Part shown: positions 21,377-28,255 of the stretch, one piece after another
Position numbering within the stretch: position 1 is the stretch's first letter
How the letters are laid out: the number at the start of each line of letters is the position of its first letter
Source: Fibrobacteria bacterium
Lineage (GTDB): Bacteria; Fibrobacterota; Fibrobacteria; UBA5070
Length of the DNA: 64,000 bases
Direction of reading: 5' to 3'
Assembly: GCA_035352895.1 (NCBI GenBank)
Contig: DAOPYN010000010.1
Location: 24,188-88,187, forward strand
The notes under the pieces: model-generated
What the model saw: the letters and a program-made list of their open reading frames with translations, nothing else
The model's database searches: none
What the model was told of the DNA's origin: nothing
Program-made: the position numbers and the translations under genes

Positions 21377-23554
21377 TCAGGCCAAGCGCTTGTTCAGCTC
21401 GTCGATCATCTTCTGCGCCGCCACCGGGATCACGGTTCCAGGTCCGAAGATGGCGGCGGCGCCGTTCTTCAGGAGGAAGTCGTAGTCCTGGGCGGGAATC
21501 ACGCCACCGCAGATGATCATGATGTCCGGACGTCCCAGCTTGGCCAGCTCGTCGCGCAACTGCGGAAGCAGGGTCTTGTGGCCGGCGGCCAGCGAAGACA
21601 TGCCCACGATGTGCACGTCGTTTTCCACCGCCTGGCGGGCGGTTTCTTCCGGCGTCTGGAACAGGGGCCCGATGTCCACGTCGAAGCCGAGGTCGGCGTA
21701 GGCCGTGGCCACCACCTTGGCGCCGCGATCGTGGCCGTCCTGGCCCATCTTGGCGATCATGATGCGGGGGCGACGTCCCTGGGCCTTCTCGAACGCGTCG
21801 GTGGCCTTGCGGACGTTGGCGACTTCTTCCGCCTCGCCGAATTCGGAGCTGTACACACCAGAGATGGAACGGATCACGGCCTTGTGCCTCCCCCAGACCT
21901 TCTCCAGGGCGAAGGAGATTTCGCCCAGGGATGCGCGGACGCGGGCGGCCTCGATCGAGAGCGCCAGCAGGTTGCCTTTGATCTCGCCGGAAGCGGCCTT
22001 GGTCAGGTTGGCCAGGGCCGCCTGGACCTTGGACTCGTCGCGTTCGGCGCGGAGCTTGGCCAGACGCTTGATCTGGGACTCGCGGACCGCGGCGTTGTCG
22101 ACGTCCAGGATTTCCAGGGCGTCTTCCTGCTCCAGGCGGAACTTGTTCACGCCGACGATGACTTCCTTGCCCGAGTCGATGCGCGCTTGGCGACGGGCGG
22201 CCGCCTCCTCGATGCGCATCTTGGGCAGACCGGTCTCGATGGCCTTGGCCATGCCGCCGAGCTCTTCCACTTCCTGGATCAGGGCCCAGGAGCGGTGCAT
22301 GAGCTCGTTGGTCAGCGCCTCCACGTAGTACGAACCGCCCCACGGATCCACGATCTTGCAGATGCCCGTCTCGTCCTGGAGGAAGAGCTGGGTGTTGCGG
22401 GCGATGCGCGCGGAGAAGTCCGTGGGCAGCGCGATGGCCTCGTCGAGGGCGTTGGTGTGCAGCGACTGGGTGTGGCCCAGCGCGGCGGACATCGCCTCGA
22501 TGCAGGTGCGCGCGACGTTGTTGAACGGATCCTGCTCGGTGAGCGACCAGCCCGAGGTCTGCGAGTGCGTGCGCAGGGCCATGGACTTGTTGCTCTTGGG
22601 GTTGAACTGCTTGATCATCTTCGCCCACAGAAGACGCGCGGCGCGGAGCTTGGCGACCTCCATGAAGTAGTTCATGCCCTCGGCCCAGAAGAAGGACAGG
22701 CGCGGCGCGAAGGCGTCCACGTCGATTCCCGCCTTGATGCCGGTGCGGACGTATTCCAGACCGTCGGCCAAGGTGTAGGCCATCTCGATGTCGGCGGTGG
22801 CGCCGGCCTCCTGCATGTGGTAGCCGGAGATGGAGATGGAGTTGAACTTGGGCATGAACTTCGAGGTGTACTCGAAGATGTCCGCGATGGACCTCATCGA
22901 CCCTTCGGGAGGATAGATGTAGGTGTTGCGAACCATGTACTCCTTGAGGATGTCGTTCTGGATGGTTCCCGTGAGCTTGTCCTGGGAAACGCCCTGCTCC
23001 TCGGCCGTGACCACGTAGAAGGCGAGGATCGGAAGGACCGCGCCGTTCATGGTCATGGACACCGACATCTGGTCCAGGGGGATCCCGTCGAACAGGATCT
23101 TCATGTCCAGGATGGAGTCGATCGCCACGCCCGCCTTGCCCACATCACCCACGACTCGTGGGTGATCGGAATCGTAGCCGCGATGGGTGGCCAGGTCGAA
23201 CGCCACCGACAAGCCCTTCTGGCCGGCGGCCAGGTTGCGCTTGTAGAACGCGTTCGATTCCTCGGCGGTGGAGAAGCCCGCGTACTGGCGCACCGTCCAT
23301 GGCTTGTTCACGTACATGGTGGTGTACGGCCCGCGCAGGAACGGTGGGATGCCGGAGGTGTACTTGGTGTGCTCCAGGCCCTCGACATCCTCGGGTCCGT
23401 ACAGGGGCTTCACCTGGATCTGCTCCATGGTGTCCCACATCAGATCGGACAATTTCTTTCCGGTCTTGGCTTCCACGGACGCCTTCCACGAGTCGAAATC
23501 GACCTTCGCGGGAGCGTCCTTCTTGTAGGAAAGCTTGGTGAAGTCGATGCTCAT
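21377..23554 (-). CDS. mutB: methylmalonyl-CoA mutase large (alpha) subunit, B12-dependent
   Basis: [13 protein letters not shown]... carries the full MCM catalytic TIM barrel and the C-terminal B12-binding domain ([23 protein letters not shown]). ATG 23554 overlaps the mutA stop (ATGA). The ORF track fuses it with upstream out-of-frame sequence. Confidence 0.95.
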
Positions 23555-25689
23555 CCCTGCACTCCGATCTTCTTCTGAAGGCCGCCCAGAACCTGGAGGA
23601 GGTTGGCGCGGACATGGATGAATTCGTCGATTCCCGAGGCCTTGTGGGCTTCGACCTGGTCGGCGGGGAAGCCCGCCAGGACCACGGCCACTCCGGGGAT
23701 CGCCGCCTTGAGGGCCGGCACGATCTGGGGGACCAGTTCGGGATAGGTGTCGTCGGTGCTGCAGATGGTGACCACCTTGGCGCCGGAATCCGTCGCCGCG
23801 TCCACCATGTCCTTCACCGAAGCGAAACCTTCCGGGTACACCACTTCGAATCCGCCGACTTCGAAGAATCCGCGGGAGAAGTCGGCGCGGCCCTTGTGCT
23901 GCGCCAGGGGCCCCATGGTCGCCAGGAAGACGCGCGGACGCCAGCCGGTGCGGACCAGATGGCGATCGGCGGCATCGCGCAGCTTCTCGAAGGGCTCCGA
24001 CAGGCGGTGGAGCTTGAGCGGCTGGATGGTCGGACGGTCGGCGTCGCCGGCGCGGATCACGCGGGTGATCTCGCCCAACGTGGCTCCGGCCTGGACGGCC
24101 TCGATCGCGGCCGCGACCATCTTCTCGTCGGTGACACCCATGAGATCGGACAGCTTGCCCATGACCTTGGAGTGCTTCACGTCGTCGTAGGCGGTGCGGT
24201 ATTCGGTGACCGACACCACGCGCGACTTGTAGATCGCGGCGTAGTCGGGCTTGCGGCCCTCGATCTTCTTTTCGCCGATGTTGGCGTACTGGTTCACGCC
24301 CACCTGGACGTCCTTGCGGGTGGCCAGAGCCGATTCCTTCGCCTTGCAGACCTTTTCGATCTCGGACTGGATGAACCCGGCCTGGAGAGCGGCGAAAGCT
24401 CCGCCCTTTCCTTCCACGGCCTGGAAGAGTTCCCAGGCCTTCTGGGCGATCTGGTCGGTGAGCCATTCCACGGCCCACGATCCACCCGCGGGATCCACCA
24501 CGTGGCGCAACTGGGCTTCCGTGGCCAGGAGGATCTGGGTGTTGCGGGCGATGCGGCGGGAGAACTCGTCCGGAAGTCCGAAGACCTCGTCGAACGGGGT
24601 CACCTGCAGCGACTGCACGCCGCCCAGCACCGCCGAGAAGCTCTCGGTGGTGGTGCGCAGGAGGTTCGCGTAGGGATCCAGCTTGGACTTGTTCCACAGC
24701 GCCGTACGGGCGTGGATGCTCATGCTCTGCGAGCACATGTTCCCGCCGAAGGCTTCCACGATGCGGCTCCACAACAGGCGCGCTGCGCGGAACTTGGCGA
24801 TTTCCATGAAGAAGTTGGGACCCACGCTGAAGGCGAAGCGCATGCGGGGAGCGACGGTGTCCACCGCCACGCCGCGCTTGACCAGCTCGCGGATGTATTC
24901 GGCGCCCTGGGAGAGGGCGAAGGCCAGTTCCTGCACGGCGCTGCCGCCGGCTTCCAGGAAGGAACGCGAGTGGACGCACACGGTCTGCAGCGCCGGAGCT
25001 TCGCGCTCGGCCCACAGGGTGAGCTGGGCCATCTCGCGATAGGCCTCGTCCAGGGACTGGGGAAGGGTGCCTTCGTGGGCGAGCACGCCCAGCGGATCCA
25101 TCTCGATGCATCCGCGCAGCTTCCTGACATCCAGTCCGCGGCTCTTGACCAGGGCGGCCAGCAGGGCGGCGAAGGGAAGTCCGGAGGCTCCCGAGCGGAC
25201 GAACAGCGAGGTCTTCTCCAGGTCGATGTCTTCCAGCGCGACGGAGAGATCCTTGATGGTGGCGATGCTGACGCCGCCCTTGCCCACGTCGCCCTCGACG
25301 GCGGAATCGGGATCGATGCCGGCGCGCGTGGCGTGGTCGAGGTTCAGGTTCAGCGCCGTGAGGCCACGCGACAGATCGTGTCTGGCGGCCTGGTTGAACT
25401 CGCGGGGTCCCGGATAGGGCAGCTCCTGCGAAACCTCCCAGGCCTCGGCGACGTAGCCTTCGTGCGAAGACCCGCGCGCCAGCTGGCCGCAACCGGGCTT
25501 GGCCTTCAGGTGTTCCAGGCCGGCCACGTCGGAGGCGTTGTAGATGGGCTGGACGGTGATGCCTTCGTAGGTGCCGGAGACGAGCTTCTTCTCGTAGGGC
25601 ACGCCCTTGAGTTCGGCTTCGACCTGGGCCTTCCACTTGTCGAAGGGAACCTCCGCGAATTCGGAGAGCAGCTTGGGTTTGTCGGTCAT
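23551..25689 (-). CDS. mutA: methylmalonyl-CoA mutase small (beta) subunit
   Basis: 712 aa, [20 protein letters not shown]..., typical MutA. Its degenerate B12 domain ends ...[19 protein letters not shown]. Confidence 0.9.
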
Positions 25690-25693
25690 CGGA

Positions 25694-27834: not shown

Positions 27835-27850
27835 GGGTGGGGAGTCTCCG

Positions 27851-28255
27851 TTACTTCTTGGGTGCGCAGAATTCCGTGAGGACGCCGCGCGTGGATTTGG
27901 GGTGCAAAAAGGCGATGTCCATTCCGCCGGCACCGGGCCGGGGAGCTTCGTCGATCAGGCGGAGTCCATCTTGCTTGGACTTGGCCAGTTCGCCGACGAG
28001 GTCGTCGGTGCGGAAGGCGACGTGCTGCACGCCTTCGCCGTTCTTCTCGATGTACTTGGCGATGGCGCTCTCTTCCGAGGTGGCCTCCAACAGCTCGATG
28101 TAGACCCCGCCCACCTTCAGGAATGCGGTGCGCACCTTCTGGGACGGCACCTCCTCGATGAGTTCGCACTTGACGCCGAGCATCTTCTCCCACAAGGGGA
28201 TGGCCTCGTCCAGGCTCTTCACCGCGATTCCAAGGTGGTCGATCTGCTTGATCAT
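27851..28255 (-). CDS. mce: methylmalonyl-CoA epimerase (glyoxalase/VOC family)
   Basis: [27 protein letters not shown]...HVAFRTDD...[19 protein letters not shown], 134 aa. ATG 28255. Confidence 0.85.

Follow-up and report, generated by a model that had tools for sequence, protein, structure and literature searches.

In the Na+-translocating decarboxylases the delta subunit is composed of a transmembrane (TM) helix bound to the beta subunit, an Ala/Pro linker and a C-terminal region; through this C-terminal region and the N-terminus of the biotin carrier, the membrane base is connected with the carboxyltransferase head (PMC7145394). Epsilon subunits are also known, and are routinely counted in the designation MmdABCDE for the methylmalonyl-CoA decarboxylase (PMC9403272). 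The locus described here is a six-gene methylmalonyl-CoA operon in a 64,000-nt stretch of contig DAOPYN010000010.1 from a Fibrobacteria bacterium (assembly GCA_035352895.1; the whole stretch is termed the window). Judged by sequence comparison, the biotin enzyme is encoded in this operon only as a cytoplasmic head, consisting of a carboxyltransferase (CT), a carrier of the MmdC/1.3S type and a 56-aa delta module; the operon is interpreted here as encoding a soluble carboxyltransferase head that descends from a Na+-pump-type cluster.

The operon spans positions 21377-28255 of the minus strand and contains six closely spaced genes encoding methylmalonyl-CoA epimerase (MCE), CT, the 56-aa open reading frame (ORF), the biotin carboxyl carrier protein (BCCP) and the two methylmalonyl-CoA mutase subunits MutA and MutB. 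The intergenic distances in operon order are only 16, 10, 13, 4 and -4 nt, the start of MutB overlapping the stop of MutA by 4 nt, and the genes are therefore considered one transcription unit. Directly 3' of the mutB stop a G+C-rich terminator-like hairpin (14 bp, 9 GC) with a T-run closes the operon at 21323..21354 of the minus strand; on the other side lies the divergent gene deaD, encoding a DEAD-box helicase (28447-30084, plus strand). The initial annotation had described the same six-gene content, which Pfam, NCBIfam and PDB matches confirm, and had rightly named deaD as a boundary; its terminator after mutB is present, but at 21354-21323 rather than at 21314. No sigma-70-like promoter was found for the operon, and an Rfam scan associated no riboswitch or other Rfam element with it.

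MCE, the first gene product, is a 134-aa protein (27851..28255, minus strand) which scores 145.6 bits against TIGR03081 (cutoff 115) and matches Glyoxalase_4 at E=9e-26. CT is a 517-aa methylmalonyl-CoA/propionyl-CoA carboxyltransferase of the alpha/12S/PccB type (26281..27834, minus strand) with a full-length Carboxyl_trans match at E=5e-175; it reaches 720 bits against the mmdA model TIGR01117, under the 999-bit cutoff. Its PDB matches are 1vrg (624 bits), the Propionibacterium shermanii 12S subunit (1on3; 603), 1x0u (581) and PccB (565), so that it stands about equally near to 12S, PccB and "MmdA" structures. BCCP is a 130-aa protein (25694..26086, minus strand; Biotin_lipoyl E=6e-18) featuring an N-terminal hairpin, MKKLRITVEGKTYEVVVE, an Ala/Pro linker and a biotinyl domain with an EAMKM motif; the anchor region, the linker and the MKM motif are the features of the gamma subunit of Na+ decarboxylases. 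It matches NF047903 (MmDecMmdC) over its full length, under the cutoff, and is also similar to the C-terminal 125 residues of PycB/OadA in NCBIfam; the closest PDB entries are those of the transcarboxylase 1.3S subunit, 1o78 and 1dcz. The carrier is thus of the MmdC/1.3S/PycB-tail type and not of the AccB type, whose N-terminal domain it does not have.

MutA, the small (beta) subunit of methylmalonyl-CoA mutase, is 712 aa long (23551..25689, minus strand; MM_CoA_mutase E=2e-165, TIGR00642 458 bits) and contains a degenerate B12-binding domain that scores under the Pfam cutoff; MutB, the large (alpha) subunit, is 725 aa long (21377..23554, minus strand), scores 1315 bits against NF006944 (cutoff 876) and contains both MM_CoA_mutase and B12-binding domains. 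The B12 domain is accordingly present in the catalytic subunit and degenerate in the small one, and an epimerase equivalog accompanies them. The operon supplies mutase, epimerase, carboxyltransferase head, carrier and assembly peptide; the activity that removes CO2 from carboxybiotin, or that loads it, is not encoded in the operon.

Orthologues of the carrier fall into approximately 60 clusters at 63% identity or above, every named one from Fibrobacteria/Fibrobacterota, and the next identities are 59% or lower. In all Fibrobacteria loci of sufficient length (L001, L006, L007, L009, L010 and L107) the order MCE, CT, 56-58-aa ORF, BCCP, MutA, MutB is kept, and the six-gene operon is unchanged even in L107, the most divergent Fibrobacteria lineage examined; genes for beta, 5S and biotin carboxylase are all missing from these loci to a distance of 10 kb from the operon. 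Since the same genes recur in the same order between flanking genes that vary from lineage to lineage, with no partner gene nearby, the six-gene unit is regarded as a fixed feature of a diverse Fibrobacteria clade and not as an accident of assembly.

The 56-aa protein and its Verrucomicrobiota relatives

The 56-aa protein (26100..26270, minus strand; ribosome-binding site GGGAGG) had been treated as anonymous, yet no other gene of the operon is as informative. It has no hydrophobic segment, is 57-75% identical among its Fibrobacteria relatives and contains 26 invariant positions across 12 homologues. When 1.84 billion representative proteins were searched exhaustively with a profile of the 56-aa family, 216 matches were returned, most of which are proteins of 110-150 aa that align only by their last ~50 residues; among the longer matches, 113 of 131 carry a TM helix ahead of the aligned module. 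Three homologues (P0016, P0027 and P0036) pass Pfam OAD_gamma (PF04277), and when 147 homologues were compared with NCBIfam, 71 matched oadG_fam, 53 MmDecMmdD and 34 MmDecMmdE, the best match to the 57-position MmdE model (NF047904) having E=1.5e-6. The 56-aa protein alone has no Pfam or NCBIfam match, being below the MmdE, MmdD and OadG (PF04277, TIGR01195) thresholds; it does not match the MmdE model even at E<=10, although its size and its place upstream of the BCCP gene fit. From the family as a whole, it is identified as the cytoplasmic C-terminal module of an OadG/MmdD-type delta subunit, related to MmdE, minus the TM helix; we term it delta-prime. Because the gene begins 10 nt past the CT stop, no decayed remnant of the anchor is present.

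The AlphaFold2 monomer of the 56-aa protein (pLDDT 81.7) features helices at residues 7-21 and 40-51 linked by an extended segment. A Foldseek search of this model against the PDB gave no match, and PDB sequence searches with the protein or the family profile returned either no match or noise (e.g., malonamidase at E=0.6).

The closest relatives of the operon are clusters from Verrucomicrobiota. A scan of species-representative genomes with a delta-module pattern, taken from a narrower alignment and reaching only Verrucomicrobiota, recovered 80 loci from this phylum. In the typical cluster mutB-mutA, in many cases divergent, precede MCE, CT, a delta with its TM helix, BCCP, OAD_beta, a CoA transferase of the acetyl-CoA-hydrolase type and MeaB, with BirA sometimes present; compared with the window, CT is 64-71% and MutB 71-79% identical. 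Set against this arrangement, the Fibrobacteria operon is a cut-down relative that has neither beta nor the delta anchor.

Partner genes were counted in the non-Fibrobacteria clusters with at least 5 kb of sequence downstream of CT (n=51). OAD_beta is present in 45 of these, three of which also have a 5S-type gene, and absent from the other six, three of which have a 5S-type gene; L076, L103 and L106, for which less downstream sequence is available, likewise have 5S and lack beta. The delta encoded beside CT is membrane-anchored in nearly all OAD_beta-bearing clusters, and the anchor is retained without a nearby beta in L024, L041, L052, L075, L076 and L080. It is lost only in the Verrucomicrobiia clusters L103, L104 and L106, where OAD_beta is absent in all three; their delta-prime proteins are 133-139 aa long, with a soluble N-terminal part and a maximum hydropathy of ~1.0. 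On the clean 9.9-Mb contig of L106 the order is 5S, MutA, MutB, MeaB, MCE, CT, delta-prime, BCCP, BirA and CoA transferase, and the 5S protein is 505 aa long with HMGL-like and PYC_OADA domains and no biotinyl domain. L103 has the same order, including 5S at the head of the cluster, despite frameshifts; the L104 contig starts before the position of 5S, which is thus visible in both anchorless clusters that can be checked.

Several further observations were made on these relatives. The 54-aa protein P0112, encoded beside OAD_beta in L102, was considered as an anchorless delta and rejected as a frameshifted anchored one, since a different frame immediately before it encodes the TM helix and the linker; it is not a counter-example. 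The N-terminal carrier hairpin, MKKLRITVEGKTYEVVVETIDD (window 26033-26086), is similar to the C-terminal tail of the 5S-type proteins, FVTVNGKRHEVTVETLDG (L103:2150-2217, L106:11400-11518); the delta module may dock onto either of these elements. Five clusters (L019, L020, L071, L065 and L064) contain a 5S-type CT and OAD_beta together with a single 12S-type CT, one delta and one carrier; their 5S-type protein is ~500 aa long, has no biotinyl domain and carries the C-terminal hairpin "..Y.LT[IV]N....E..VE". This co-occurrence around a single 12S-type CT, delta and carrier suggests an enzyme able to work as methylmalonyl-CoA decarboxylase, oxaloacetate decarboxylase or transcarboxylase; in a survey of gut genomes, Mmd and transcarboxylase never co-exist (PMC9403272). 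Tandem pairs of OAD_beta and of delta genes are seen in the Verrucomicrobiota loci L028, L045, L051, L056, L063, L067, L092 and L102, some of which also encode a TerC-family membrane protein and BirA.

Partner of the carboxyltransferase head

The absence of MmdB/OadB, 5S and biotin carboxylase from the operon, as initially annotated, is upheld by gene call, Pfam and tblastn. In the 64-kb window, tblastn (with the L103 5S sequence as the 5S query) detected no OAD_beta, 5S, CoA transferase, BirA or MeaB, and in 18 related Fibrobacteria loci it detected none of these except a MeaB in L006; the gene call of the window, with Pfam applied to the larger unknown genes, revealed neither OAD_beta nor a 5S/OadA-type gene, and a single biotin carboxylase gene, accC. 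A membrane-anchored delta is likewise absent from operon, window and flanks. Overlapping contigs from other samples extend the sequence by ~7.5 kb on the left and 3 kb on the right, where pheT, phoU, PHO4, ALAD, bamA and clpB were found and no partner gene, in agreement with the earlier expectation that mmdB or 5S just past the window is unlikely. At the protein level, a search with the stitched L103 5S returned 120 matches of 88% identity or more, of which nearly all that carry a name are from Verrucomicrobiota and none is from Fibrobacteria; the search with the carrier identified no paralogue beyond the ~60 orthologous Fibrobacteria clusters.

The partner is most likely an unlinked 5S subunit, the whole forming a soluble methylmalonyl-CoA:pyruvate transcarboxylase; this assignment is tentative, and is held at somewhat less than an even chance. 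It is modestly favoured because the delta anchor is lost exclusively in clusters without beta, with 5S present wherever this can be determined, and because clusters that merely have their beta elsewhere keep the anchor. In the proposed mechanism, CT would form carboxybiotin from (S)-methylmalonyl-CoA, while the 56-aa protein would tie the N-terminal hairpin of the carrier to CT, as is thought for the C-terminal region of delta; a 5S-type carboxyltransferase encoded elsewhere would then hand the carboxyl group from carboxybiotin to pyruvate. By this reversible reaction a succinate-forming Fibrobacteria fermenter could make propionate via transcarboxylase. The direction of flux is not set by the genes; the direction from succinate to propionate would fit the succinate-forming physiology reported for Fibrobacter and the CoA transferase of the related clusters, a gene that the searches around the Fibrobacteria operon did not yield.

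A broader proposal, also tentative and given slightly less weight, is that Fibrobacteria and, independently, soil Verrucomicrobiia possess a soluble four-component transcarboxylase, composed of 12S-, 5S- and 1.3S-like proteins and a delta-derived assembly peptide, which would have arisen from a Na+-pumping methylmalonyl-CoA decarboxylase by loss of beta and of the delta helix. If so, the 56-aa protein would be a molecular fossil left by the conversion of a pump into a transcarboxylase.

Several points weigh against a transcarboxylase with an unlinked 5S. Neither the window and its flanks nor the Fibrobacteria loci examined yielded a 5S gene; by their CT, BCCP and MutB distances, the Fibrobacteria proteins are no nearer to 5S-type than to beta-type clusters. 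The analogy with 5S is drawn from three Verrucomicrobiia clusters, one of them ridden with frameshifts, and the delta-prime of these clusters has a soluble N-terminal extension of ~80 aa which is absent from the 56-aa protein. Anchorless delta-like proteins also occur in true pumps, MmdE of Veillonella parvula being an example. In Xylanibacter (Prevotella) ruminicola, a known propionate producer that belongs like Fibrobacteria to the FCB superphylum, mmdA, a 50-aa ORF and mmdC are split from oadG-mmdB-mmdC (PMC11575231), and an OadGAB pump is predicted for the Chitinivibrionia, a class within the phylum of the Fibrobacteria (PMC4814513).

The last of these points lead to the alternative that survives best, a split Na+-translocating methylmalonyl-CoA decarboxylase: the operon would encode alpha, an epsilon-like subunit and gamma, while an OadB-type beta and an anchored delta/OadG would be encoded at another locus and, by the decarboxylation of carboxybiotin, pump Na+ there. 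The distant membrane locus possibly has a second carrier, or is possibly shared with an oxaloacetate decarboxylase. The gene order in V. parvula, which has both delta and epsilon, is presumably mmdA-D-E-C-B, and the mmdA, epsilon-like and mmdC genes of the operon would represent this order minus the membrane subunits D and B. The MmdE-model matches of 34 of the 147 homologues of the 56-aa protein agree with this, as does the large majority of beta-type clusters among the relatives (45 of 51); the six Verrucomicrobiota clusters with an anchored delta and no beta nearby indicate that unlinked beta does occur, and the separate mmdA, 50-aa ORF, mmdC and MCE of X. ruminicola offer a strong literature precedent, as compared by layout and ORF size. 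However, all six of these unlinked-beta clusters retain the delta anchor, which is lost here, and no OAD_beta or anchored OadG lies in the 64 kb and flanks, or up to 10 kb from the operon in the Fibrobacteria loci L001, L006, L009, L010 and L107; a split pump is regarded as nearly as likely as the transcarboxylase.

The initial annotation had offered two options for the partner, the AccC encoded at 35369 or a protein encoded elsewhere. The second is supported; under the first, AccC or another biotin carboxylase (e.g., of the PycA type) would load the carrier of the operon, and CT would make methylmalonyl-CoA for the catabolism of propionate or odd-chain substrates as part of an ATP-dependent propionyl-CoA carboxylase. 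The accC gene, whose coordinates Pfam confirms (35369-36718, minus strand), is located 9 kb from the operon; CT matches PccB structures as well as it does 12S, the carrier is similar to the C-terminal portion of PycB, a protein that operates with a separate biotin carboxylase, and the acyl-CoA carboxylases of Sulfolobales consist of separate biotin carboxylase, carrier and CT proteins annotated as mmdA/mmdC (cf. 1x0u, 2d5d). Such a carboxylase is nonetheless improbable and the least likely of the partner options, because accC has an accB and an accA of its own, with which it forms a housekeeping acetyl-CoA carboxylase, the MmdC-type carrier stands alone, neither linked nor fused to a biotin carboxylase, the delta/epsilon-type protein of the operon is peculiar to the decarboxylase/transcarboxylase lineage, and biotin carboxylase occurs in none of 70 homologous clusters.

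Other features of the window

The window has a G+C content of 64%. The remaining genes of the housekeeping acetyl-CoA carboxylase set, identified by Pfam and located outside the operon, are accB (37817-38287, minus strand) and accA (40500-41483); between accB and accC a gene for a pilT-like T2SSE ATPase (36718-37815, minus strand) is found, an unusual insertion in the accBC pair, and the start of accC overlaps its stop. RNA genes comprise a class A RNase P RNA (31646-32023, minus strand; 260 bits), tRNA-Pro(TGG) (14781-14854, plus strand) and tRNA-His(GTG) (43865-43939, plus strand). Two very large ORFs with high coding scores, of 1908 and 1993 aa, lie on the minus strand at 48570-54296 and 55322-61303; for the second, a homologue of 2015 aa is on record without a Pfam match. 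At 8310-9896 and 10056-13716, both on the minus strand, a GH5 cellulase adjoins an HD-domain protein and a GAF-GGDEF diguanylate cyclase; the cellulase is consistent with a cellulolytic lifestyle of Fibrobacteria.

Comparison with known systems

The operon resembles the transcarboxylase of Propionibacterium freudenreichii (shermanii) in its 12S-type CT (603 bits to 1on3), its 1.3S-type carrier and the N-terminal hairpin of that carrier, and differs from it in that 5S was not found in the window, flanks or Fibrobacteria loci; to our knowledge, no delta-derived fourth protein is part of the classical transcarboxylase. The Verrucomicrobiia clusters L106, L103 and L104 share with the operon a helix-free protein of the delta family and the absence of OAD_beta, with CT ~68% and MutB 74-78% identical to those of the window; unlike the operon, they include 5S, MeaB, BirA, a CoA transferase and a longer delta-prime (133-139 aa).

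In common with the Na+-translocating methylmalonyl-CoA decarboxylase MmdABCDE of V. parvula, Propionigenium modestum and Bacteroidota, the operon encodes an alpha-type CT and a gamma-type carrier with anchor hairpin, Ala/Pro linker and MKM; a gene for an epsilon-sized protein lies directly upstream of the carrier gene, and MCE is adjacent as in the clusters of Bacteroidota and Verrucomicrobiota. It is distinguished from MmdABCDE by the lack of OAD_beta (PF03977) and of an anchored delta in the Fibrobacteria operon, window and flanks. The arrangement is less unusual than the initial annotation had claimed, as the split loci of X. ruminicola also place mmdA, a ~50-aa ORF, mmdC and MCE together without mmdB, the small ORFs being likened by size and place; there, however, the oadG-mmdB-mmdC module adjoins mutAB, while here mutAB is inside the operon and no membrane module was located (PMC11575231).

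All six protein families, and split mmd loci, are thus already known. What appears to be new is, first, a methylmalonyl-CoA pathway operon in Fibrobacterota, a phylum whose cultured members are described as producers of succinate, acetate and formate and for which the literature search found no published report of this pathway; second, an operon form, kept clade-wide, that lacks both beta and the delta anchor and has mutAB joined downstream. The conserved mutase, epimerase and CT genes imply that a widespread uncultured clade of cellulolytic Fibrobacteria can interconvert succinate and propionate, which bears on models of carbon flow in digesters and sediments. Third, the recognition of the anonymous ORF as the C-terminal module of delta also appears to be new, as does the finding that presence or absence of the anchor seems to track the type of partner in the relatives; the delta TM helix would thereby provide a simple sequence marker that may separate Na+-pumping decarboxylases from soluble transcarboxylase-like enzymes, which are now annotated alike.

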